Of a stretch of 64,000 nt of DNA, positions 594 to 54,918 are shown piece by piece (the first letter of the stretch is position 1; the number at the start of each line of letters is the position of its first letter). The DNA comes from Patescibacteria group bacterium (lineage in GTDB: Bacteria; Patescibacteriota; Microgenomatia; UBA1400; MFAQ01): assembly GCA_943355005.1 (NCBI GenBank), contig CALRDV010000003.1, positions 72,590-136,589 of the forward strand. Reading direction: 5' to 3'. The translations under genes and the position numbers were made by a program. The notes beneath the pieces were generated by a model. That model was not told the origin of the DNA. It saw only the letters and a program-made list of their open reading frames with translations, and did no database searches.

Positions 594-775
594 TCGTGCC
601 TCCTTAGGGCGAAGTTTAAGATGAGATGGTGCCTATTATAGCACTATAGGGCTAAAATAGCAAGTGGAGGTGGCTAAAGTGAGGCTGGGGTGCTAGAATA
701 GGGAAGTTAAATTAGTAATTTATCCTGGCACGAATCTCTGAAATGTGCCTAAGGATCAAAATGAGATGAAAAAAT

Positions 776-1885
776 ATGGCTACAAAAGCTAAAGAAGTTG
801 CGGTCACAACCAAAAAAGAGACCAAACCCGCCGTCGTTAAAAACTCTGGCGAGGTAAAGAAAGTAGTTAAGAAGACAGCAGTTAAGAAACCCGCCGTCGT
901 TAAAAACTCTGGCGAGGCAAAGAAAACCGTTAAGAAAACAGCTGTTAAGAAACCCGCCGTCGTCAAAGACTCTGGCGAGACGAAGAAGGCTGTTCCGAAA
1001 AAAGCTCCCGTAAAGAAGATTGTGAAGAAATCTGACAAGAGTGAGATTGCCAGGTCGAGTACTCCTCGCAATGACGATTTGGGGATGGATTCCGGGTCTG
1101 AGCCCGGAATGACAGATGAAGTGAAGATTGAGAAAACAAAAGTAGAGGAGAAGAAAGTTGAAGTAGTCAAAAAAGAATATCCTAGAACAGAAACATCTAT
1201 TGAAGAGCTTTTTGAAGCCGGTGCCCATTTTGGCCACGTGGTCAAAAAATGGAATCCTAAGATGAAAAAATATCTTTGGGGAGCCAAGAACGGTATTCAT
1301 ATTTTCGATCTTGAGAAAACAGTCGCAGGAGTTAATGAAGCTACCAAGGCTTTGACCGAGATGGCTGCTGCAGGAAAGAGAATTGTTCTTGTTGGAACCA
1401 AGAGACAGGTGAGAGCTATGGTGGAGGAAGAGGCCAAGAGACTCAATATCCCTTACATAACTCAGCGCTGGATGGGTGGATTAATCACCAACTGGAAACA
1501 ACTCAAGCTCACTTTGGACAGATTGAATTCTTTGAAATCCAAGAGAGAGTTGGGACAGCTAAAGAAATACACCAAGAAGGAACAGCTTTTATTCGATAAA
1601 GAGATCAATAAGCTTGAGAGAATCGTCGGTGGTATTGCTTCTCTTAGGGAAGCCCCTGAAGTGGTAGTCGTTTTCGATACCCACAAAGAGAAATTGGCTG
1701 TCAAAGAAGCTTCCAGTCGTGGAGTTCAAGTGGTCGGCTTGGTAGATTCCAATGCAAACCCTGATCCGATTGATTACTTAATCCCTATGAATGATGACTC
1801 TGCCAAAGGTTTGGAAATCTTGGTGAGAGTTCTTGGACAGGCGATTGAGAATGGACAGAAAGCAAAGAAGGAAGTTAAGAATTAA
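776..1885 (+). CDS. rpsB: 30S ribosomal protein S2 with a ~130 aa Lys/Ala/Val-rich N-terminal extension.
   Basis: The C-terminal 240 aa match the S2 core (EAGAHFGH...WNPKM...IFDLEKT). The extension is built from 63-bp tandem repeats plus codons from an embedded hairpin repeat. An alternative start at Met 1109 would give a canonical-length S2. Confidence 0.9.
   Translation: MATKAKEVAVTTKKETKPAVVKNSGEVKKVVKKTAVKKPAVVKNSGEAKKTVKKTAVKKPAVVKDSGETKKAVPKKAPVKKIVKKSDKSEIARSSTPRNDDLGMDSGSEPGMTDEVKIEKTKVEEKKVEVVKKEYPRTETSIEELFEAGAHFGHVVKKWNPKMKKYLWGAKNGIHIFDLEKTVAGVNEATKALTEMAAAGKRIVLVGTKRQVRAMVEEEAKRLNIPYITQRWMGGLITNWKQLKLTLDRLNSLKSKRELGQLKKYTKKEQLLFDKEINKLERIVGGIASLREAPEVVVVFDTHKEKLAVKEASSRGVQVVGLVDSNANPDPIDYLIPMNDDSAKGLEILVRVLGQAIENGQKAKKEVKN
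824..1012 (+). repeat. Three tandem copies of a 63-bp repeat (aaacccgccgtcgttaaaaactctggcgag...) encoding KPAVVKNSGE-KK-VKKTAVK units.
   Basis: Copies begin at 824, 887 and 950 with exact 63-nt periodicity. Seen directly. Confidence 0.85.
1046..1114 (+). repeat. Composite hairpin repeat (attgccaggtcgagtactcctcgcaatgac + ggattccgggtctgagcccggaatgaca) inside the rpsB reading frame.
   Basis: The sequence matches intergenic units at 5227, 27036, 2408 and 38017. The rpsB ORF stays open through it. Confidence 0.8.
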
Positions 1886-1895
1886 GGAATTTATT

Positions 1896-1927
1896 TATAT
1901 AGATTCCCGATCAGGTCGGGAATGACA
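1896..1927 (+). repeat. Hairpin repeat unit, type A (tatagattcccgatcaggtcgggaatgaca).
   Basis: The same 30-mer occurs at 25316 and 36182. Confidence 0.85.
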
Positions 1928-1946: not shown

Positions 1947-2399
1947 ATGATGGACAAGATTAAAGAATTAAGAGAAAAGACCGGCGCCGGTATTATGGAC
2001 GCTAAGAAAGCTTTGGAAGAAGCCAACGGTGATATGGCCAAGGCCATGGACATCATCAAGGCTAAGGGGATTCTGAAGGCTGAGAGTAAGGCTGACCGAG
2101 AAGTCCGCAGTGGTCGTGTTTACTGTTACACACACGGAGGTGGTTCAGCTGCAGCCATGGTAGAAGTGGCTTGCGAAACCGACTTTGTAGCTAAGACTCC
2201 TGAGTTCGAAACACTTTGCAAAGAGATTGCAATGCAAATTGTATCTATGGACCCAAAAACAGTAGAAGAACTGATGAAGCAGGATTATATCCGCGATGGC
2301 AGTAAAACGATGGATGCTTTGGTCAAGGAGCTTTCGGGTAAAACCGGTGAAAACATCCGCGTGACCAGATTTGCTAGATTTAAATTAGGAGTTGAGTAA
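1947..2399 (+). CDS. tsf: Elongation factor Ts (short form, 150 aa).
   Basis: N-terminal EF-Ts UBA-like motif (IKELREKTGAGIMDAKKALEEANGDM) and conserved rpsB-tsf synteny. Confidence 0.85.
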   Translation: MMDKIKELREKTGAGIMDAKKALEEANGDMAKAMDIIKAKGILKAESKADREVRSGRVYCYTHGGGSAAAMVEVACETDFVAKTPEFETLCKEIAMQIVSMDPKTVEELMKQDYIRDGSKTMDALVKELSGKTGENIRVTRFARFKLGVE

Positions 2400-5226: not shown

Positions 5227-5258
5227 AGATTGCCACGTCGAGTACTCCTCGCAATGAC
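5227..5258 (+). repeat. Hairpin repeat unit, type E (gattgccacgtcgagtactcctcgcaatgacgg).
   Basis: Near-identical to the units inside rpsB (1046) and nadA (27036). Confidence 0.8.
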
Positions 5259-5280
5259 GGATGTTACTTGGTAAGATTGA

Positions 5281-7108: not shown

Positions 7109-7137
7109 ATTAAAATTTATAAATTGACAATCAGATG

Positions 7138-7245
7138 AAAGATTCGAATTGCTTGTTTTGCAAAATTGTTGCCGGGGAGGAGCCGTGTGAGAAGGTTTTG
7201 GAGAATGAAGGCTCCACGAATACTTTAGTTGTAACGCTAGTAACG
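7138..7245 (+). pseudogene. Truncated duplicate of the 5' end of the HIT gene (MKDSNCLFCKIVAGEEPCEKVLENE...).
   Basis: About 75 nt are nearly identical to 8043-8120. The downstream frame degenerates and stops quickly. Confidence 0.6.
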
Positions 7246-8042: not shown

Positions 8043-8390
8043 ATGAAAGATCCAAGTTGCTTGTTTTGCAAAATTGTGGCCGGGGAGGAGCCTTGTGAGA
8101 AGGTGTGGGAGAATGAGGAGTTCCTGGCTATCAAGAATAAGTATCCCATGGCTAAGGTGCATGTTTTGGTCATGCCTAAATCCCATATTAGAAAACAAGA
8201 GGTTGCTACTAGTCAAAGTGGGGAGTTTTGGGGTACAATTATGCCAGTCGTTTTTAGGGTAGTTTCTGAGCTAAAGCTCGAAAATTCTACCTACAAACTG
8301 GTTAATAACGGTATGGGATACGCCCATTTTGAGCACGAACATGTTCATATTTTAGGAGGATCCAAGACTGAGCCGGGTGGAGCGACTTAA
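8043..8390 (+). CDS. HIT family hydrolase.
   Basis: Histidine triad HFEHEHVHIL near the C-terminus and an N-terminal CLFCKI motif. Confidence 0.8.
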   Translation: MKDPSCLFCKIVAGEEPCEKVWENEEFLAIKNKYPMAKVHVLVMPKSHIRKQEVATSQSGEFWGTIMPVVFRVVSELKLENSTYKLVNNGMGYAHFEHEHVHILGGSKTEPGGAT

Positions 8391-17299: not shown

Positions 17300-18997
17300 C
17301 TATATTTTTCTTAGTTGATTGTTTTCTATGACGTGGGTGACTCCGAGGGATTTTAGTTTGAAAATAATTTCGGGATTTAGGCCGTATGCGTTTATATTTT
17401 CGACCATGTCAATCCAGTCTTTTGTGGCGAAGCCGGAGAATCCGCCCAAGCGACGGTGTTTGTGAAACAGGGAGTATAAGGAACGAACAGATTCAATTTC
17501 GTGATCCGGCATGTTCCAGAGTTTGATAGGAAGTTCCAGTATGATATCGTCTGAGGGTAGATTTTTAACTTCTTGATATACGGGATGCATATTTATATTT
17601 ACTGGGTAACCTTTGAGAGGTAGGTCGGCTTCCAGAAACAAAAATGAAAGTATAAGTAGTATAAATGTAAATTTTGTCTTGGCAGCGAGATTCTTGAAAA
17701 TGGGAACTAGCTTGTAGCCGATAATGATTACTGCTGCGAGTAATGCGAGGAGGATGAAGCGGCTGGGAGTGCGGAAGCCGGTGAAGCCTGGGAAGAGGTA
17801 ATAGAAAAGGGCGTACGGAAGGGGAGTGGGGAAGCTAAATATTCGAAGATTTTTGCCGAATATCTTGAGGACTGGGCCGAGGGACATGATAAGGGAGAAG
17901 AATAAAATATATTTCCAGGGATCAAAAATATGGCGTTTCGGACCGCGCCAAAGAAATTGCGTTAAGTATTTCTTCAATGTCATTCCGGGCTTGACCCGGA
18001 ATCTATATAAATAAAATCCGCTAATTCTGGATTCCGGCTCGGTGGCCGGAATGACGACTTTTCTGTTTAGCCTGGATTGCCACGCCTTTTGAAATAGGCT
18101 CTCAATGACAAGAGTTGTGATAAAAAGAGTAATTACTGTCCGGCTGTGATATTTGGTGAAGATTTCGTCCAATCCTAGTGAGAAGGCGGCGGCGTCGCGG
18201 ATGGGTCGGGTGGCTTCGGGAAATTGTAAATGAAGCTGGAGATATGGAAAGAGTAAAGATATCCAGAGTGGAAGAATGAAAATGAATTGAATTAGAATTT
18301 TTAGAAACTGCTCTTTCTTTCTCCAAAACAGACAAAAACAAGCGAAAAAGATTAAGTAAAAGGTAAAAATGCTTTCAGCTAATTGGGCCGTACTGGAGAG
18401 CAGAACAAGTGTAAGAAAGATATTTTTGTCTGTGTCTTGGTATCTGAGGTAGAAATAGATGGTTAGGATAGTGAGCCAAAGTGAGAAAATTTGTAAATGG
18501 GGTAAGTAGGATAGGTGGAAGCCGGTAAAATTGAAAAGAATTGTAGCCAATAACGTAACCCAGTGATCCTTGAATAAATAGTTAAAAAGTAGGTATGAGC
18601 TAATGATGGTCAGGAGGAAATTAGTGATTAAAGCAACGTTAAAAATTAATACCGGGTGATTGGTCAGAGCTCGAAATGGGAGGGTTATTATGGATGTAGT
18701 CAAAAAGAGGTCGGAATAGGTAAGGGTGTCTTTCTCCGGGGCGAAAAAAGTGCCAGAATATAGAGGTTTGTGCTCGATTAAGTTGTTTTGAACTTGACCG
18801 ATGATATAAGCAATGAGACGAGTGTCGTTGTTGTCCGGTAGGATGTCCTTGGGGTAGATAAAAGCCGACGGATAAACAAATAATATTAGAAGTATCGAAA
18901 AAATGCTGATGATAAGCCACTTTCTGACCTGCAAGGAGAGTCCTTGCAGGTAAATAGGGGTATGGGGATTCATGGCTAGAGTATAGCAGTGATACAA
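17300..18997 (-). CDS. Large polytopic membrane protein. A GT-C-type glycosyltransferase-like fold is possible but not verified.
   Basis: 565 aa with many TM segments. A composite hairpin repeat is embedded in-frame at 17979-18085. Confidence 0.7.
   Translation of the reverse strand: MYHCYTLAMNPHTPIYLQGLSLQVRKWLIISIFSILLILFVYPSAFIYPKDILPDNNDTRLIAYIIGQVQNNLIEHKPLYSGTFFAPEKDTLTYSDLFLTTSIITLPFRALTNHPVLIFNVALITNFLLTIISSYLLFNYLFKDHWVTLLATILFNFTGFHLSYLPHLQIFSLWLTILTIYFYLRYQDTDKNIFLTLVLLSSTAQLAESIFTFYLIFFACFCLFWRKKEQFLKILIQFIFILPLWISLLFPYLQLHLQFPEATRPIRDAAAFSLGLDEIFTKYHSRTVITLFITTLVIESLFQKAWQSRLNRKVVIPATEPESRISGFYLYRFRVKPGMTLKKYLTQFLWRGPKRHIFDPWKYILFFSLIMSLGPVLKIFGKNLRIFSFPTPLPYALFYYLFPGFTGFRTPSRFILLALLAAVIIIGYKLVPIFKNLAAKTKFTFILLILSFLFLEADLPLKGYPVNINMHPVYQEVKNLPSDDIILELPIKLWNMPDHEIESVRSLYSLFHKHRRLGGFSGFATKDWIDMVENINAYGLNPEIIFKLKSLGVTHVIENNQLRKI
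17979..18085. repeat. Composite hairpin repeat: reverse type B unit, forward type B unit, then a partial type E unit, all inside the membrane protein CDS.
   Basis: tgtcattccgggcttgacccggaatctatata ... ctggattccggctcggtggccggaatgacgac ... ggattgccacg. Confidence 0.8.
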
Positions 18998-23902: not shown

Positions 23903-23945
23903 CTTGGATTGCCACGACCCGCCGTGGCGGGTCTCGCAATGACTG
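23894..23945 (+). repeat. Hairpin repeat, type E variant with a GC-rich stem (ggattgccacgacccgccgtggcgggtctcgcaatgac).
   Basis: ATTGC...GCAATGAC ends are shared with the other type E units. It probably acts as the cysS terminator. Confidence 0.7.
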
Positions 23946-24997: not shown

Positions 24998-26590
24998 TCA
25001 AGACTCCCGGTAGTGGCAGCCGATGGATTTTGGGTTCGCATAAGCAGCTTTAGCCACGATTAGGGAGACTAAGACCATGTTTCTGAGGCCTAATAATTCA
25101 TCTGACAGGGTGGCTTCCCGATAGAACTTGTTGATGGTGTTCTCCATTTGTGACAGATCCGAGATGGCTCTTTCGAGAAGTGGGGTTTTTCGAACCAATC
25201 CGACCATGTTCCACATGATGTTTTTTACCGTGTTTGCATCGGCGGACATGAGGGCGCTGTCAGCGGGGAATTTTTTGAAGTAGTTCCAAGAGGGGACGTC
25301 TGAGGAGTTTATTTTTATAGATTCCCGATCAGGTCGGGAATGACAAAATGTATTGGTAATGGATTTGGCGGCGCGGGAGCCAAACACGAGACCTTCCAGA
25401 AGGGAGGTGCTAGCCAGACGATTGCCACCGTGTAACCCCGTGCAAGAGATTTCGCCCACAGCATAAAGATTTTTTATGGATGATTTGCCAACGAGGTCTG
25501 TCAAAATTCCACCGCACATATAATGAGCGGCCGGAGAAACAGGGATGAGGTTTGTCGTAATATCTATTCCATATTTGAGACAGCTTTCATGAATCATGGG
25601 AAAATGTTTCAATATTTCTTCTTTGGAAATATAAGACTTTAAGTCCAGATATACATTTGAAGCTCCTGTCTCCAGCATTTCGGTAAAGATAGCTCTCGAG
25701 ACCTTGTCGCGGGTGGTAAGGTCTGGTTTGTCCAATTCCGGATAGTATTTTTGCATAAAAGGAATACCTTGTGAATTTGTTAGACGCGCACCTTCTCCGC
25801 GGACTGCCTCACTAATAAGGAATGGTGGAGCTCCGGTAATTTTTAAAGCGGTTGGGTGAAATTGTTCGTATTCCATATTTAGTAGCTTTGCTCCGGCACG
25901 ATAAGCCATAGCGATGCCATCTCCTCTAGCTCCTTTGGGGTTCGTAGTAAATGCAAAGATTTGGCCGTTACCACCGCTGGCTAGAATAGTAGTTTTTGCC
26001 AAAATTCTGGAAATAATGCCGTCTGCTTGATCGAAGGCGTATACCCCAACACAAGTATCGGTGCCATATTTATTCAACCAGTTATTGGTTTGGTGACCGG
26101 TAGTTATTAAGTCGACCGCAGTTAGATGATCAAAAATAGTAACGTTGCTTAATTTTTTTAAAGATTCGGTGAGATGTTCTTGAATGGATCTACCCGTAAA
26201 ATCAGAAACTTTAGCGACTCGTGGTTCTTTGTGGCCGCCCTCAAGAGCATAGGATAAATTTCCGTCTTTCTCCTTGTCAAAGGGAACGTTTGCGATTTCC
26301 AGTAATATTTTGTCTACTAAGGCAGGTCCTTCGTCAGCTAAGATTTGAGCGGCTTCAGGAAGTCCAATTCCATCGGCTGATTTTAGGATATCTTCGACTA
26401 GGTCCGGGCCACCTTTGGCAATGATGCCACCTTGGGCATAATTGGTATTTGATTCGTTTGGAGTTTCGGCTCTGGTTAATATTATTATTTTGATGGTCGG
26501 ATCCTGTTTGCTAATTTCGATAGCGGCAGTTGCTCCTGCAATGCCGGTGCCAATGATGAGTATGTCTGCTGTGAGGAGTTCTTGTTTCAT
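24998..26590 (-). CDS. nadB: L-aspartate oxidase.
   Basis: 530 aa with the FAD-binding N-terminus DILIIGTGIAGATAA. In an operon with nadA and nadC. Contains an in-frame type A repeat at 25316-25345. Confidence 0.9.
   Translation of the reverse strand: MKQELLTADILIIGTGIAGATAAIEISKQDPTIKIIILTRAETPNESNTNYAQGGIIAKGGPDLVEDILKSADGIGLPEAAQILADEGPALVDKILLEIANVPFDKEKDGNLSYALEGGHKEPRVAKVSDFTGRSIQEHLTESLKKLSNVTIFDHLTAVDLITTGHQTNNWLNKYGTDTCVGVYAFDQADGIISRILAKTTILASGGNGQIFAFTTNPKGARGDGIAMAYRAGAKLLNMEYEQFHPTALKITGAPPFLISEAVRGEGARLTNSQGIPFMQKYYPELDKPDLTTRDKVSRAIFTEMLETGASNVYLDLKSYISKEEILKHFPMIHESCLKYGIDITTNLIPVSPAAHYMCGGILTDLVGKSSIKNLYAVGEISCTGLHGGNRLASTSLLEGLVFGSRAAKSITNTFCHSRPDRESIKINSSDVPSWNYFKKFPADSALMSADANTVKNIMWNMVGLVRKTPLLERAISDLSQMENTINKFYREATLSDELLGLRNMVLVSLIVAKAAYANPKSIGCHYRES
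25316..25345 (+). repeat. Type A hairpin repeat (tatagattcccgatcaggtcgggaatgaca) inside the nadB coding sequence.
   Basis: Identical 30-mer to those at 1898 and 36182. Translated in nadB as TFCHSRPDRESIKI. Confidence 0.85.
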
Positions 26591-26591
26591 A

Positions 26592-27752
26592 TTATTTAAT
26601 GGCGATCATACGGCGAATTGGTAATTCTGCTTTGGCTCTGAGACCTTCTGGGACGGTGATTTCATACTGCATGTTTTCCAAAGCTTCAATAACTGTTTCC
26701 AGATTGTTTTGGGCCATGTGGGGACATCTTTTCTGGATAGAGCAAACTTGTAAAACGTTCTTGTGTTTGGCAGCCAGCATTTCGACCATGGCGCACTCTG
26801 TAAAGAAGGCAACTGGTCTATCTTGGACATCTTGTTTCTCTATATTTTTAATCATCTCACCGGTGGAGCCGGCAAAATCTACTTCAGCGATAACTTCTGG
26901 TGGGCATTCAGGGTGAGCCATGATGTAGACACCGGGAAAATCTTTCCTAAGTTCAATCGCGTCTTTTGGGGTGAATTTCTCATGAACTTCGCATTTTCCT
27001 TCCCAGGCGATGAAGAGGATATTGGGAGAACCTTTGTGGAGTGAGATTGCCACGTCGCGCTGCTCCTCGCAATGACGGATGTTTGATTCTGCTGAAGCGG
27101 ACGTGTCGGGGAAAAATATATCGGCACCCATATCTCGAGCGACATTTTGGGCTAAGAATTTATCGGGTAGAAAGATGACTGTATTTGTTTTCCACTCTTT
27201 GAGTGCCCACTCGACAACCTTTCGAGCATTGCCGGAAGCACAGCAGACATCAACTTCAGATTTGGTATCGGCATCTGTGTTTACATAGGCGACCACGGGA
27301 ACTCCGGGGAACATAGCTTTCAATTTGCGGACATCCGCTCCGGTAATACTGGAAGCAAGTGAACATCCAGCTTTCAGAGAAGGTATGAGCACTGTTTTGG
27401 TAGGGTTCAGTACTTTGGCGGTTTCTGCCATAAATTTGACTCCGAGAAATAAAATGAGATCTGCATCGGTTTCCGTTGCTTTACGGGATAATTCTAATGA
27501 ATCTCCGCGTATGCCTAAGACTTCGTCGCACTGCAAGTCCCAGGACATATAGTTGTGCTTTAGAATGACGGCTTTCTTTTCTCTCACTAGGCGATTGAGT
27601 TTTTCTACCTGACCGGCTTTGATCCATAGTTCGAAATCTGGACTGTAACCGGAATATTTTTCTTTGAAGAGGTCAAAAATTTCTTGTTGGGATAGGAGTG
27701 TAGTATTGTTAGTCATTATATTTTTATATTTGTATTTATTATCTTTTGTCAT
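26592..27752 (-). CDS. nadA: Quinolinate synthase.
   Basis: NadA pattern (ILKHNY ... GDSLELSRKATETDADLILFLGVKFMAETAKVLNP ... GCSLA). Contains an in-frame type E repeat at 27036-27071. Confidence 0.9.
   Translation of the reverse strand: MTKDNKYKYKNIMTNNTTLLSQQEIFDLFKEKYSGYSPDFELWIKAGQVEKLNRLVREKKAVILKHNYMSWDLQCDEVLGIRGDSLELSRKATETDADLILFLGVKFMAETAKVLNPTKTVLIPSLKAGCSLASSITGADVRKLKAMFPGVPVVAYVNTDADTKSEVDVCCASGNARKVVEWALKEWKTNTVIFLPDKFLAQNVARDMGADIFFPDTSASAESNIRHCEEQRDVAISLHKGSPNILFIAWEGKCEVHEKFTPKDAIELRKDFPGVYIMAHPECPPEVIAEVDFAGSTGEMIKNIEKQDVQDRPVAFFTECAMVEMLAAKHKNVLQVCSIQKRCPHMAQNNLETVIEALENMQYEITVPEGLRAKAELPIRRMIAIK
27036..27071 (+). repeat. Type E hairpin repeat (gagattgccacgtcgcgctgctcctcgcaatgacgg) inside the nadA coding sequence.
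   Basis: Translated in nadA as SNIRHCEEQRDVAIS. Homologous to the units at 1046 and 5227. Confidence 0.8.
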
Positions 27753-27812
27753 TCTGAACTTGATTCAGAATCCAGGATTTTCTGGATGCCGGATCGGGTC
27801 CGGCATGACAGA
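27746..27812 (+). repeat. Composite hairpin repeat (type D followed by type C) between nadA and nadC.
   Basis: tgtcattctgaacttgattcagaatccagg ... tctggatgccggatcgggtccggcatgaca. Confidence 0.8.
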
Positions 27813-30050: not shown

Positions 30051-31094
30051 ATGAGTTTAAAGGTGGGAATTGTGGGGTTACCAAATGTCGGGAAGTCGAC
30101 ACTGTTTAATGCTTTGTTAAAAAGGCAGCAGGCTTTGGTGGCAAATTACCCGTTTGCGACGATTGAGCCGAATGTAGGGATAGTAGAAGTGCCGGACGAA
30201 AGACTGAATGTTTTGGCAAAAATGTCCCAGAGTGTGAAAATCGTGCCAGCAACAGTGGAATTTGTGGATATTGCCGGTTTAGTGGCCGGGGCAGCGACCG
30301 GAGCGGGACTGGGTAATAAATTCTTGACTCATATTCGTGATGTGGATGTGATATTGCAAGTTTTAAGAGATTTTAAAGATTCCGAGATTGTGAAAGAGGG
30401 TAGTGTGGACCCCAAAACGGACTATGAAGTAATCGAAACCGAACTAATCTTGAAGGACTTAGAAACAGTTTCCAAAATACGGGAAAGTAAAGATCTAAGA
30501 CAAAAAGGCCTTGAGAAGAAAAGGGGAGTGGTGGAGAAACTTTTTGAGGGATTAAACAATGGACAGCCTGCAAGGACCATCCTTGCAGGTGAGGAGGTTG
30601 AGCTGGCTAGAGATTTGTTTCTCCTGACCATGAAAAAAGAGGTTAAGGTGTTTAATGTGAGTGAGATGGATCCCCGCATTCGCGAGGATGACAACGGAGA
30701 GTTCTGTGTTTGTGCAAAGATTGAGTCGGAGCTTTCAAGCTTGTCAGATGAAGACGCTAAAGCCTATATGGCTGATTTGGGGATTAAGGAATCCGGATTG
30801 GATAAGCTAATCAGGAAGGCCTACGAGACTCTAGGGCTTATTAGCTTCCTGACCACTGGAATCACTGAGAGCAGGGCTTGGACGATTGAGAAGGGGACTA
30901 AGGCACCCCAAGCAGCTGCTGTAATTCATACAGACTTTGAGAAGAAGTTTATCAAGGCTAAGGTTTGCGGCTATGACGATTTTGTGGCTTGTGGAGGCTG
31001 GAAGGAAGGGGTAGAAAAAGGGAAAGTCAGGTTTGAAGGTAAGGAATATGTAGTGAAGGATGGTGATGTGGTGGAGTTTATGGTTGGTGCTTAA
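30051..31094 (+). CDS. ychF: Ribosome-binding ATPase YchF (Obg family).
   Basis: G1 motif GIVGLPNVGKSTLFNAL and a TGS-like C-terminus. Carries two in-frame palindromic insertions at 30567 and 30668. Confidence 0.9.
   Translation: MSLKVGIVGLPNVGKSTLFNALLKRQQALVANYPFATIEPNVGIVEVPDERLNVLAKMSQSVKIVPATVEFVDIAGLVAGAATGAGLGNKFLTHIRDVDVILQVLRDFKDSEIVKEGSVDPKTDYEVIETELILKDLETVSKIRESKDLRQKGLEKKRGVVEKLFEGLNNGQPARTILAGEEVELARDLFLLTMKKEVKVFNVSEMDPRIREDDNGEFCVCAKIESELSSLSDEDAKAYMADLGIKESGLDKLIRKAYETLGLISFLTTGITESRAWTIEKGTKAPQAAAVIHTDFEKKFIKAKVCGYDDFVACGGWKEGVEKGKVRFEGKEYVVKDGDVVEFMVGA
30567..30591 (+). repeat. REP-type palindrome cctgcaaggaccatccttgcaggtg inside ychF, encoding PARTILAG.
   Basis: Same palindrome as the copies flanking the RAYT gene at 53.6-54.9 kb. 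Confidence 0.8.
30668..30693 (+). repeat. Hairpin repeat, type F (ggatccccgcattcgcgaggatgaca) inside ychF.
   Basis: Reverse complement of the unit at 36136-36163. Shares the CTGGAT...ATGACA ends with the family. Confidence 0.7.
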
Positions 31095-38062: not shown

Positions 38063-38803
38063 TTAGATTACCTTGGCGGTGGAGAGGTAGTCTTTGCCTT
38101 CAAATTTTTTGGTAATGGCAAAAATGGAACTACCTGGCTTAATGTCGGTTATGACAATGGTTGATTTTTTGGTCAGGGTGTACAAGACCTCTTTACCTTC
38201 GATGCTAAGGCCAATTATTTTTTTCTTTGCATCTACGGAGGAAACTTTGGCAAAGATAGTTCCAGATACCATTGCTGATGGGTCTTCCTTGATGACAATA
38301 ATTCTTTTTGCCAGAATGATATCTTCTTTTAGTAAAGTGCCAATTACGATAATTTTGTCGGAGATGGCAATAGTGGTTAGTTTGCCGGGTTTGGCTTCTT
38401 TGATGTAGGCTGTTTTGTCATCTGTGGTTATTTGGATTAACGATTCGTCTTTGGAAGTTAGAGTGATGTTGCCCGAGTTTATGGATTTAACGTAACCAAC
38501 GTATCCCACCAAGGTTTTCTGATTTATTTTTTCTTTCAAGTTTGATTCGGTGGCAGTGAGATTTTCTTTTACAAGTGACTTAATTTTTTCCTGAATATCT
38601 TCGGTTTGAGATGGGGTGGCAGCTATCGTGGCTACTTTTTCTGTGGGAGTGGCGGAAGGGGTGGCAGTCTTGGTGGGGGTTGGGGAGGCGGCAAAAACGG
38701 TAGAGTTCGGAGTTACTGGATGGATTCCTGCCTTCGCAGGAATGACTATTGTTATGGATAATATTATTAAAATTGATAGTGCAACTAATTTTTTACTTTT
38801 CAT
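38063..38803 (-). CDS. Secreted hypothetical protein with a Pro/Thr-rich linker.
   Basis: Signal peptide followed by a PTPTKTATPSATPTEK linker. Confidence 0.6.
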   Translation of the reverse strand: MKSKKLVALSILIILSITIVIPAKAGIHPVTPNSTVFAASPTPTKTATPSATPTEKVATIAATPSQTEDIQEKIKSLVKENLTATESNLKEKINQKTLVGYVGYVKSINSGNITLTSKDESLIQITTDDKTAYIKEAKPGKLTTIAISDKIIVIGTLLKEDIILAKRIIVIKEDPSAMVSGTIFAKVSSVDAKKKIIGLSIEGKEVLYTLTKKSTIVITDIKPGSSIFAITKKFEGKDYLSTAKVI

Positions 38804-45531: not shown

Positions 45532-45952
45532 AATAAAACAAAATCTGTTTAAAAAATATTTAATTCTGGCCATTAGTTCGAGTTTTGTAATACTTGATAT
45601 TTTTTTGCAGTCATATTTTCGCAATAGGGGATTGGGGATTGAAAATCGAGGTGTGTCTTTTGGAATTTTTTCAGGCTGGGGTCAGGGGATTGCAATTGTA
45701 GTTTTCTTTCTTTTTATTCTATTTTCCTCAAGGAGCTTTATAAAAGGGAAGTCTGACTTAGGGTTGTTGATGATTCTGATTGGGGGCCTGGGAAACTTGA
45801 TTCCCAGGTTGTTTCAGGGCGGTGTATGGGATTATATTTATTTGCCACTTTTGCCCTTTTGGTTTAATTTTTCGGATGTCATGATAACCGGTGGGGTATT
45901 TTTGTATGGATGGAGGGAGATTGCTTCAGCTCGAGTACGAGATTCGCAATGA
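45500..45952 (+). CDS. lspA: Lipoprotein signal peptidase II.
   Basis: LspA motifs GVSFGIF and GGLGNLIPR...WDYIYL...FNFSDVMITGGV. The last codons and the TGA stop lie inside a hairpin repeat. Confidence 0.8.
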   Translation: MKLRLKRRGDEIKQNLFKKYLILAISSSFVILDIFLQSYFRNRGLGIENRGVSFGIFSGWGQGIAIVVFFLFILFSSRSFIKGKSDLGLLMILIGGLGNLIPRLFQGGVWDYIYLPLLPFWFNFSDVMITGGVFLYGWREIASARVRDSQ

Positions 45953-45995
45953 CGGGAGGGTGGAGTGAGTCTCGCCAGGGCGGGAGACGGTGACT
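45935..45995 (+). repeat. Hairpin repeat, type E variant, followed by a GC-rich palindrome (gagtctcgccagggcgggagac).
   Basis: The unit cgagtacgagattcgcaatgacgg supplies the lspA stop codon (caaTGA). Confidence 0.65.
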
Positions 45996-53414: not shown

Positions 53415-53619
53415 GTGTCCTCCAAATGACGTTTTTTGTTTACCGGGTGATTATACTGTAAATATTTAAATAATTTAAGCCTGGTTTGGGTTTATTGTAT
53501 TTACTATATTTGTCGCTTAACATTTTTAAAATGTTTACGAGATTCAGCTGTCTTGTCTGCTTATTTTGATGGTAATTTGGTAAGGGTATCGGCTGTTGTA
53601 AGTATTTTCCTCATTTCAA

Positions 53620-53642
53620 CCTACAAGGACCATCCTTGCAGG
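53620..53642 (+). repeat. REP palindrome (cctacaaggaccatccttgcagg) immediately upstream of the RAYT gene.
   Basis: 10-bp stem with a cca loop. One of six copies in the window. Confidence 0.8.
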
Positions 53643-53654
53643 ATTCTTTAAATA

Positions 53655-54362
53655 ATGATCGAGTGTAAGATTAAATTAATGCCATCAAAAAATGTCGTTA
53701 AAGAATATGAGGCTGGTGGGTATTATCATATATATAACCGAGGGGTTGAAAAAAGACAGATTTTTATGGATGAGATGGACTACTCGGTTTATATCTCATA
53801 TCTGGCTACATATTTATCACCTGAAGACTTGCAAGGACCATCCTTGCAAGAGAAAGTATCTCCTTCCAAGGTTTCGAAGAATTATTTTGGAGAAATTAAA
53901 TTACTTGCTTATTGCTTGATGCCGAACCACTTTCATTTGATGCTAACTCAAGAAACTGAACACGGAATAGACCATTTTATGAGATCTATGTCTACCAAAT
54001 ACGTTCGATATTTTAATACTAAATACAAAAGAGTTGGTCCACTATTTCAAGGAATATATAAAGCGGTTAGAATTCAAGATGAATATCAATTTGTTTACCT
54101 TTCGAAATATATTCACCGGAATCCAATCGATTTATTTGCCTGCAAGGATGGTCCTTGCAGGTTGGTGGATTACAAATATTCATCGTATGGAAATTATCTG
54201 CATTTGTTTAGTCAAGGATGGCTGGATACTGAGGAAATTTCAGGCTTGTTTGGTAATGTAAATAAGCAAATTTCGTATCGGAACTACAGAGAGTTTGTGG
54301 AAGGAACATCTGACGAAGACATAACCATGATTAAGGATGTTGTCCTCGATATTGATGTTTAA
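53655..54362 (+). CDS. REP-associated tyrosine transposase (IS200-like Y1 HUH transposase, RAYT).
   Basis: HUH motif LMPNHFHLM, catalytic Tyr region YLSKYIHRNP, and N-terminus YYHIYNRGVEKRQIF. Flanked by inverted REPs. Two further REP copies lie inside the CDS at 53828-53850 and 54139-54161. Confidence 0.8.
   Translation: MIECKIKLMPSKNVVKEYEAGGYYHIYNRGVEKRQIFMDEMDYSVYISYLATYLSPEDLQGPSLQEKVSPSKVSKNYFGEIKLLAYCLMPNHFHLMLTQETEHGIDHFMRSMSTKYVRYFNTKYKRVGPLFQGIYKAVRIQDEYQFVYLSKYIHRNPIDLFACKDGPCRLVDYKYSSYGNYLHLFSQGWLDTEEISGLFGNVNKQISYRNYREFVEGTSDEDITMIKDVVLDIDV
53828..53850 (+). repeat. REP palindrome inside the RAYT coding sequence (encodes LQGPSLQ).
   Basis: cttgcaaggaccatccttgcaag. Confidence 0.75.
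54139..54161 (-). repeat. REP palindrome in the opposite orientation inside the RAYT coding sequence (encodes ACKDGPCRL).
   Basis: cctgcaaggatggtccttgcagg. Confidence 0.75.
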
Positions 54363-54871
54363 TCACCTGCAAGGATGGTCCTTGCAGGTCTTAAGGGTTG
54401 AAGAGAACTGTCGATGAGAGCGGAGGAAGTCCACAAGGATATAGACTTGGGAATGTGGAGAAAGGTTAGTTGAGAATAAAGGTCTCCCCTATTGATTAAT
54501 TCCATAATTTTCCAACAAATTTGGTTGCAATGCGAATTACCCATTGCTTTGCCAAGTTTCATATATTCGTCTGGCTCTAGAAAATTATTAAGGTTGGTTT
54601 GCTCAGGAGTGTTATGCTCAAATTCGTTGCGAAATTGATTTGTGCAGATAGTTTCGATTCTAATTTTATCTTGATCTACACCAGTGTATGATCCTAAACC
54701 GAGAATAAATTTGGGTTGGTCGTGCAACAACAGTCTTAGAAAGTGGCTGAAATTGCTTGGATTTGTAATGTAACTGCAATCTGTGTTGCGAAGTTTATAC
54801 AAAATATTTTTGGTGGGAGGAAAAGAAAATGCGTAGATTTGGTTTTCGAAGAGGTTTGTTGTATTTTTCAT
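54359..54871 (-). CDS. Hypothetical protein, possibly pyroglutamyl-peptidase I (C15)-like.
   Basis: GNSHCNQICWKI and LTFLHIPKS resemble the C15 Cys and His motifs (G-x-x-x-C-N and IHVP). The N-terminus is atypical. The C-terminus is encoded by a REP copy. Confidence 0.4.
   Translation of the reverse strand: MKNTTNLFENQIYAFSFPPTKNILYKLRNTDCSYITNPSNFSHFLRLLLHDQPKFILGLGSYTGVDQDKIRIETICTNQFRNEFEHNTPEQTNLNNFLEPDEYMKLGKAMGNSHCNQICWKIMELINRGDLYSQLTFLHIPKSISLWTSSALIDSSLQPLRPARTILAGD
54366..54388 (-). repeat. REP palindrome downstream of RAYT, forming an inverted pair with the copy at 53620.
   Basis: cctgcaaggatggtccttgcagg. Confidence 0.8.
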
Positions 54872-54895
54872 AGCCGAGAGATTGCATTGCTATTG

Positions 54896-54918
54896 CCTGC
54901 AAGGATGGTCCTTGCAGG
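54896..54918 (-). repeat. REP palindrome.
   Basis: cctgcaaggatggtccttgcagg. Confidence 0.8.

Follow-up and report, generated by a model that had tools for sequence, protein, structure and literature searches.

The window analysed here, a stretch of 64,000 nucleotides from a Patescibacteria group bacterium (GenBank assembly GCA_943355005.1, contig CALRDV010000003.1, positions 72,590 to 136,589 of the forward strand), carries an rpsB gene whose open reading frame (ORF; 776..1885, + strand) starts with ATG and encodes a 369-aa ribosomal protein uS2 with an N-terminal tail. The comparative data make it likely that rpsB is read from ATG 776 and yields a uS2 with a constitutive, disordered, polycationic and lineage-wide tail, which would have been enlarged by the triplication of a 63-bp unit and by two in-frame repetitive extragenic palindromic (REP) elements. 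The ATG at 1109, which lies inside one of these elements, would then be incidental.

The uS2 core, its tail and the upstream leader

The Pfam profile Ribosomal_S2 (PF00318) matches aa 145-360 of the product over profile positions 1-216 of 216, with 254.9 bits against a cut-off of 26.1. Additionally, 61 solved S2 chains match the product with E values down to 3e-61, and the S2-S1 fusion entry 4TOI is among them. In the alignment with solved bacterial S2 chains, their residues 3-7 fall on aa 138-142, which places the expected canonical N-terminus at approximately aa 134-137, in agreement with the original prediction that the S2 core starts around residue 135. The conserved uS2 core extends from approximately residue 137, and residues 1-136 constitute an extra tail.

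776..1183, + strand: N-terminal tail (aa 1-136), K 26%, V 16%, net charge +19, predicted disordered

The first 88 residues of the tail carry a charge of +22, and the stretch encoded by the REP elements is acidic (net -4) and breaks up the basic tract. In the AlphaFold2 model, built from a 29-sequence alignment, the core folds and nearly all of aa 3-134 exhibits pLDDT (predicted local distance difference test) values below 50 and no secondary structure, which predicts that the tail is intrinsically disordered. The tail alone (aa 1-135) matches no Pfam family at E <= 0.1, so the earlier description of it as histone-H1-like applies to its composition and does not extend to a family relationship. 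The possibility that a separate upstream H1-like gene was fused to rpsB through a lost stop codon was rejected, as the tail is continuous with S2 in every relative and no stand-alone homologue appeared.

The best database matches of the product are annotated as Candidatus Collierbacteria (Microgenomates, candidate phyla radiation, CPR), and the top 120 homologues are mostly 280-356 aa in length and hence extended too. For a wider comparison, 80 rpsB loci were taken from species-representative genomes and the gene was located in each; 22 Collierbacteria-like loci were analysable. A basic tail of 47-136 aa, with 18-36% K and a net charge of +4 to +19, is present in 22/22 of these loci, and the tail in the window (136 aa) is the longest. 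These tails open with MA(T/K)KA..K.V..T.KKEVKK. Elsewhere among the 80 loci, more distant Microgenomates have K-rich N-termini of 10-30 aa, most other distant CPR loci (e.g., those labelled Uhrbacteria and Amesbacteria) have an ordinary N-terminus of 9-10 aa, and tails of 40-66 aa occur in a few unrelated lineages.

Judged by these loci, the long S2 tail is a lineage trait of Collierbacteria and not a general CPR feature. The original prediction had called basic extensions typical of CPR-like reduced genomes; many ribosomal proteins do have documented CPR-specific extra regions, but the published list of enlarged proteins does not include uS2 (PMC9297842), and the short N-termini of most distant CPR loci do not fit that generalization. 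On the same comparison, what is conserved in the tail is its presence, its positive charge, its K/A/V/E composition and its MA(T/K)KA start, and both length and sequence drift freely. As a side observation, the metagenome-assembled genome records of L001, L003, L004, L011, L013 and other loci are titled "uncultured Pseudomonadales/Gammaproteobacteria bacterium", yet their rpsB is clearly of the Collierbacteria type (64-87% identical), and these labels look wrong.

The region upstream of ATG 776 contains three conserved elements, and tsf follows rpsB in the order rpsB-tsf.

691..699, + strand: extended -10 promoter-like box TGCTAGAAT of the rpsB-tsf unit, family pattern TGnTAnAAT
722..756, + strand: rpsB leader hairpin with the invariant loop AATCTCT (733-739), a 9-11 bp stem that folds in 22/22 loci
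763..767, + strand: invariant GAGAT, complementary to ATCTC of the leader loop, 8 nt before the ATG in the window and 5-10 nt across loci
1947..2399, + strand: tsf, a short elongation factor Ts of 150 aa, Pfam EF_TS match of 67.3 bits

In the alignment of the 22 loci, the T, A, A, A and T positions of the -10 box are invariant; a sigma-70 scan did not flag the box at 691-699 because it has no -35 match. RNAalifold on MAFFT alignments returned either the pairing of the invariant loop with GAGAT or no structure, since the variable stems are out of register in these alignments. Covariation of the leader stem was accordingly judged by per-sequence folding and by a test of complementarity between the 5' and 3' arms with cross-sequence controls. 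The loop-closing helix is represented by 15 different 5-mers, and 5/5 pairing with the 3' arm of the same sequence is observed in 15/22 loci versus 13% in the controls. The pairing of GAGAT with the loop is predicted in 22/22 sequences, where an absence of variation means an absence of covariation; GAGAT is possibly a weak Shine-Dalgarno (SD) sequence (AAAGAGATGA) that is sequestered by a pseudoknot.

Although their tails differ, the window and its closest relative, L001 (87% core identity), have almost the same sequence over the approximately 75 nt that precede the ATG. In 15/22 loci, an in-frame stop codon lies 1-2 codons upstream of the MA(T/K)KA ATG. The conserved leader directly abuts ATG 776, which argues that translation is anchored there. 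A search of Rfam at the gathering threshold, and another over 600-1250 at E <= 10, assigned neither the leader nor the tail to a known RNA family; the one match, to P31 with 15.8 bits, is attributed to chance. The covariance model RF00127 gave no match to the leader at either setting. The rpsB leader may be regarded as a candidate new ribosomal-protein autoregulatory RNA in Collierbacteria, with a putative pseudoknot over a weak SD.

Tandem repeats and REP elements in the tail

Two kinds of sequence account for much of the tail in the window.

824..1012, + strand: three tandem 63-bp units, each of 21 codons in frame, encoding KPAVVK(N/D)SGExKKxVKKTAVK
1043..1076, - strand: REP element A, tag-first CGTC / ATTGCGAGG / agtactcga / CCTGGCAAT / ctc
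1086..1114, - strand: REP element B, tag-first TGTC / ATTCCGGG / ctcaga / CCCGGAAT / cca
27045-27077, 23907-23944 and 45919-45954, strand not stated: further element A copies from the window search

Tandem Repeats Finder reports positions 824-1006 with a period of 63, 2.9 copies, 86% matches, 0% indels and a score of 261. The copies lie at 824-886, 887-949 (90% identical to copy 1) and 950-1012 (70%), so that the three exact-period repeats described originally are present with an exact period, although the copies are not identical. The 63-bp unit was not found in 23 Collierbacteria-like relatives, including L001, and a scan of metagenome contigs for the 30-nt repeat core, exact or degenerate, gave no match and revealed no strain-level relatives.

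Residues 91-113 (IARSSTPRNDDLGMDSGSEPGMT) are encoded by the two palindromic elements, which bears out the translated hairpin repeat noticed earlier in the tail. Element A is read on the plus strand as (S)EIARSSTPRND and has a 9-bp stem with one mismatch (ATTGCGAGG/CCTGGCAAT), a 9-nt loop and a CTC tail; a copy with 97% identity is located at 5227-5259, approximately 4 kb away. Element B is read as MDSGSEPGMT and has a perfect 8-bp stem (ATTCCGGG/CCCGGAAT), with an RNA fold of -14.5 kcal/mol (z = -2.5) and a loop of 6 nt, or 4 nt if an extra G-C pair forms; most B copies have a 5-nt loop. The core motif of element B occurs 16 times in the window versus 3.5 expected, and 0/100 shuffles reached 16. 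The complete REP insert comprises 69-75 nt, a multiple of three, is stop-free in the frame used and is absent from L001, where the flanks are orthologous.

A comparison with L001 indicates when the tail was enlarged. Both flanks of the REP pair (...KSE / insert / DEVK...) align between L001 and the window, and L001 lacks the first half of the 63-bp unit and any 63-bp periodicity, from which the gain of the REP elements and repeats in the window tail is judged to be recent and lineage-specific. Peptides of the REP-A type (EIA-x5-9-RND) are present at differing positions in the tails of L008, L011, L013, L016 and L021 (twice), as well as in the proteins P0004, P0010, P0016, P0022 and P0050, and the DNA under these peptides in the relatives fits the pattern GATTGC...GCAATGAC. 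The differing positions of the inserts, together with their absence from L001, suggest that the tail is a permissive, fast-evolving segment that repeatedly captures palindromes and duplications.

Other palindromes were also observed in the S2 tails of relatives. The palindrome AACTCAAaataTTGAGTT is translated as KTQNIEL within a period-8 A-rich array, and TCCGCCaaaGGCGGA is translated as SAKGG, with an intergenic copy in L006 that has the same TCGAGTAC flank. The sequence TCGAGTAC also forms the loop of REP element A in the window.

L002 2949-2966, L005 2769-2786, L010 2817-2834, L003 3055-3069 and L006 1922-1938: other palindromes in relatives

The likely history combines two ordinary mutational routes. 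A local tandem triplication of the 63-bp, 21-codon unit would have lengthened the tail, and two short CGTC/TGTC-tagged REP elements would have inserted in frame, adding 23-25 codons without a stop in the frame used. Both would be tolerated by a disordered, surface-exposed segment. In the 30S subunit, uS2 occupies the junction of head and body on the solvent face, where the mRNA exit and the docking site of bS1 are its neighbours. The polycationic tail probably binds rRNA or mRNA electrostatically on this face. The REP elements, in turn, would be passengers and not functional parts, which fits the observation that the acidic REP stretch interrupts the basic tract better than a designed part would. 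The locus may display the stepwise growth of a ribosomal-protein extension, in which selfish palindromic DNA of a CPR bacterium would have settled in the gene for an essential, universal ribosomal protein.

The intragenic REP elements might instead be functional elements of the rpsB mRNA, such as a pause or attenuation site, a barrier to RNase or a second S2-binding site. The family is usually located directly after stop codons, and the literature on such elements suggests a role as RNA elements (PMC3733652); REP-A-type inserts also recur in the S2 tails of several relatives. However, the positions vary among the relatives, the nearest of which has none, the same elements are present in the unrelated genes nadA, nadB and ychF, and a tail that is permissive to insertion would explain the recurrence equally well. 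A functional role of the intragenic REP elements is therefore considered unlikely.

Internal ATGs and alternative readings of the locus

The original prediction proposed that the extension is optional, with a second start at an in-frame ATG inside the repeat. This ATG is present as described, at aa 112 within element B, and a start there would give a product of 258 aa.

1109..1111, + strand: in-frame ATG at aa 112, composed of the last two stem bases (AT) and the G of the GACA tag of element B (AAT/GACA)

In such a dual-start gene, initiation at 776 and at the REP-borne ATG 1109 (or at 1085, aa 104, likewise REP-derived) would produce tailed and near-canonical S2 isoforms. The two internal ATGs are located some 25-33 codons ahead of the core. 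No GGAG, GAGG, AGGA or GGTG is present in the 22 nt upstream of 1085 or of 1109; an SD, in some cases a strong one, precedes just 21/59 window genes, so a missing SD does not rule out a start. In nadA, too, the ORF has as its first ATG (27752) a REP-derived AATGAC, a parallel that would suit an initiating role. On the other hand, no internal ATG exists in 18/22 Collierbacteria-like tails, which means that no internal start is conserved. The AAT/GACA junction of stem end and tag occurs in every element B copy, including the intergenic ones, which indicates that ATG 1109 is fixed by the REP consensus; furthermore, it is base-paired in the stable 8-9 bp G+C-rich stem (-14.5 kcal/mol). A promoter scan detected no promoter-like site within the tail, and the conserved regulatory leader is located at 776.

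The proposal of an optional extension with two starts is not supported by these results, nor by the presence of the tail in 22/22 loci. By this comparison, ATG 1109 is part of the conserved end of the REP element and is incidental. Low-level internal initiation at rpsB may occur, and dual initiation of the gene is possible but unlikely.

A more elaborate alternative treats the tail as a replacement module. The small basic ribosomal protein bS21 is reported to be often missing from Collierbacteria (PMC9297842), and the tail could possibly take its place near the mRNA exit and the anti-SD, with a length tuned by duplication and REP capture; the REP-borne ATG, the hairpins and the leader pseudoknot would then switch between tailed and untailed S2. 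This combination appears distinctly improbable. If the tail did substitute for a missing ribosomal component, it would be relevant to understanding reduced ribosomes.

It could also be argued that the upstream 400 nt are untranslated, that translation starts near the core and that gene callers report the long ORF only because the leader is rich in AAR and poor in stops. Tsurumaki et al. (PMC9297842) caution that additions at the N-terminus of ribosomal proteins in CPR hinge on which first start codon was predicted, and one public annotation, P0095 (225 aa), calls the short form. In addition, two antisense ORFs overlap the tail, at 712-1287 (- strand, 191 aa) and 749-1300 (- strand, 183 aa). 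They are almost certainly not genes, and both frames are free of stops because the sense strand is AAR/GTN-rich; an open frame alone is therefore not evidence of coding, and the case for a coding tail is built on homology and the conserved start.

On those grounds, an untranslated tail is very improbable. The protein start MA(T/K)KA...KKEVKK is kept across loci with cores that are 56-87% identical, and in most loci the frame opens exactly at the MA(T/K)KA ATG. The promoter-like box and the leader are located upstream of ATG 776 and not of the core, and all length changes, whether REP inserts or 63-bp units, are multiples of three. As for the short annotation, in locus L019, from the same named genome as P0095, the frame stays open for a tail of 96 codons ahead of the core. 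The long form of uS2 in Collierbacteria is very likely real, which answers, for uS2, the start-codon caveat of the literature on CPR ribosomes.

Finally, a chimeric ORF produced by a metagenome assembler joining two loci at a dispersed repeat is scarcely credible and was rejected: dispersed repeats do make up the junction region, and a copy 4 kb away shows 97% identity, but both REP flanks are orthologous to the single rpsB of L001 (the N-terminus and leader on the left, DEVK...KKEYPRTETS on the right), and a database entry from a 168-kb contig has the identical 369-aa sequence.

Several points weigh against a constitutive tail read from ATG 776 and carrying two inserted REP elements. GTG and TTG codons exist in every tail, so the absence of ATG does not exclude non-ATG starts. 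Between the 63-bp copies, synonymous versus nonsynonymous changes number 2 vs 2, 4 vs 7 and 2 vs 7, which are small numbers in which synonymous changes do not clearly predominate. The exact tail sequence is under weak coding constraint, which fits a low-complexity tail and would equally fit non-functional sequence. Element A deviates from the published norms of its presumed family in its 9-nt loop, its stem mismatch and its CTC tail. Moreover, the assignment of both the start codon and the tail function depends on comparative inference.

The REP family in the window and comparison with known systems

The 64-kb window holds 24 REP copies in total, of which 19 belong to type B and 5 to type A. 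Fifteen copies fall between genes, as a rule 12-20 nt past a stop codon, and 9 are in frame in six ORFs, namely rpsB (two copies), nadA, nadB, ychF and two unannotated ORFs.

1900..1927, - strand: intergenic REP B copy, 15 nt past the rpsB stop
2411-2438, strand not stated: REP after tsf, from the window search
25318-25345: REP in nadB (24998-26590, - strand), reads FCHSRPDRESIK, an 8-aa insert versus E. coli NadB 1CHU
27045-27077: REP in nadA (26592-27752, - strand), reads IRHCEEQRDVAIS within 32 residues unmatched between two aligned blocks of 4HHE
30667-30693: REP in ychF (30051-31094, + strand), reads EMDPRIREDD
17978-18056: two REP copies in frame in a membrane-type ORF of 565 aa (17300-18997, - strand)
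38721-38749: REP in a secreted-type ORF (38063-38803, - strand), reads IVIPAKAGIHP

The tail of the element is CCA in 11, CTA in 5 and ACA in 1 of the 17 clean TGTC/CGTC hairpin copies. The stems vary by compensatory changes (CCCGA/TCGGG, CCGGG/CCCGG, CCGGA/TCCGG and TCTGAA/TTCAGA), and the flanks are constant. Five inverted dimers are located near 17978/18028, 27747/27783, 36136/36184, 37982/38018 and 46750/46797. The relatives L002 and L003 also carry a REP element directly after the rpsB stop. The translated copies in the window are read in both orientations and in at least three reading modes, and no frames with stops were seen, as expected if only harmless insertions survive.

The promoter and terminator scan found no canonical terminator at the REP elements, and their identification as intrinsic terminators was dropped because a T-run is lacking. 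At 1922-1951, upstream of tsf, the REP tag ATGACA and a TATGAT 18 nt later give a sigma-70-like promoter score of 10 of 12; some REP copies might create promoters, with the tag resembling a -35 hexamer. The AATGAC that supplies the first ATG of the nadA ORF belongs to the intergenic REP at 27747-27774 (MTKDNKYKYKNIMTNN...), and the true nadA start is probably the next Met, which shows how REP elements can mislead start prediction. For annotation, an ATG that derives from a REP element, as in rpsB and at the beginning of the nadA ORF, should not be called as a start.

A second palindrome family, CCTGCAAGG-nnnn-CCTTGCAGG, has 7 copies in the window, five of which form a cluster at 53.6-54.9 kb; the copy within ychF is read as GQPARTILAG.

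18925-18950, 30564-30589, 53617-53642, 53825-53850, 54136-54161, 54363-54388 and 54893-54918: copies of the second palindrome family

Separately, the 74-nt stretches 7135-7208 and 8043-8116 are 91% identical, and each begins with ATG and encodes MKD..CLFCKIVAGEEPCEKV...; they are apparently the starts of two tandem paralogous genes approximately 0.9 kb apart.

A literature search yielded nothing specific on a lysine-rich S2 extension, on CPR palindromic repeats or on Collierbacteria palindromes. The closest described elements are the CGTC-tagged REPs, which, in the survey by Di Nocera, De Gregorio & Rocco 2013 (PMC3733652), consist of an unpaired CGTC tag (variants TGTC and CCTC), an 8-9 bp stem beginning A-T, a short loop of 4-5 nt (families with other loop lengths are noted) and a tail that is mostly CCA. 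The same source includes Rickettsia conorii RPE-4 and RPE-6 (RPE, Rickettsia palindromic element) and Neisseria dRS3 among them and documents in-frame intragenic copies. The repeats are reported there from 5 phyla, mostly Alphaproteobacteria, and no CPR lineage is named in the sections consulted.

The rpsB hairpins match this REP type, as judged by architecture and not by alignment to the named families CGTC-1 to CGTC-4. The window elements share the CGTC (A) or TGTC (B) tag, the 8-9 bp AT-first stem and the CCA-type tail with the type as there described, and they are likewise dispersed, mostly downstream of ORFs and often in inverted dimers, with a minority in frame that adds approximately 8-30 residues. 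They differ from the described elements in that the host is a CPR/Microgenomates bacterium, in that about a third of the copies are intragenic, and in the loop and tail of element A noted above. Furthermore, the target here is a ribosomal protein gene, whereas the survey highlights replication and repair genes among others (PMC3733652).

In the in-frame location of palindromes in essential genes, which are translated in tolerant regions and do not destroy the genes, the window elements resemble the Rickettsia elements of the RPE-1 type. The RPE-1 elements are about 100-150 bp in length, whereas the elements here are REP-sized (28-38 bp) and differ in lineage and sequence. The Rickettsia type of translated REP/RPE would hereby be extended to Microgenomates.

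As a lineage-restricted N-terminal addition to a universal ribosomal protein in Microgenomates, the tail is comparable to the CPR-specific extra regions, for example the 40-130 aa N-terminal addition of uL1 in Microgenomates (Tsurumaki et al. 2022, PMC9297842). Unlike the regions described, the start of the S2 tail is backed by a conserved leader, and the sequence itself reveals how the tail grew, through tandem duplication and the insertion of REP elements. The S2-interacting leader of rpsB-tsf (Rfam RF00127 "t44"; Aseev 2008, reviewed in PMC3616713) likewise combines a structured 5' region immediately ahead of rpsB-tsf with a possible pseudoknot, an arrangement consistent with autogenous control. 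In contrast to RF00127, the leader in the window is a single hairpin with an invariant loop complementary to an SD-like region, and binding of S2 to it is putative.

The tail also shares its low-complexity, polycationic, disordered character and its short internal repeats with the histone-H1-like tails of bacteria. Those tails are Lys/Ala/Pro-rich and include the C-terminus of mycobacterial HupB and AlgP. The S2 tail is V/E-rich and proline-poor by comparison, and the likeness is compositional only, with no Pfam or sequence relationship. Both the hairpin class, as CGTC-tagged REP or RPE-like selfish palindromes, and the lineage-specific extension of a ribosomal protein are already known kinds.

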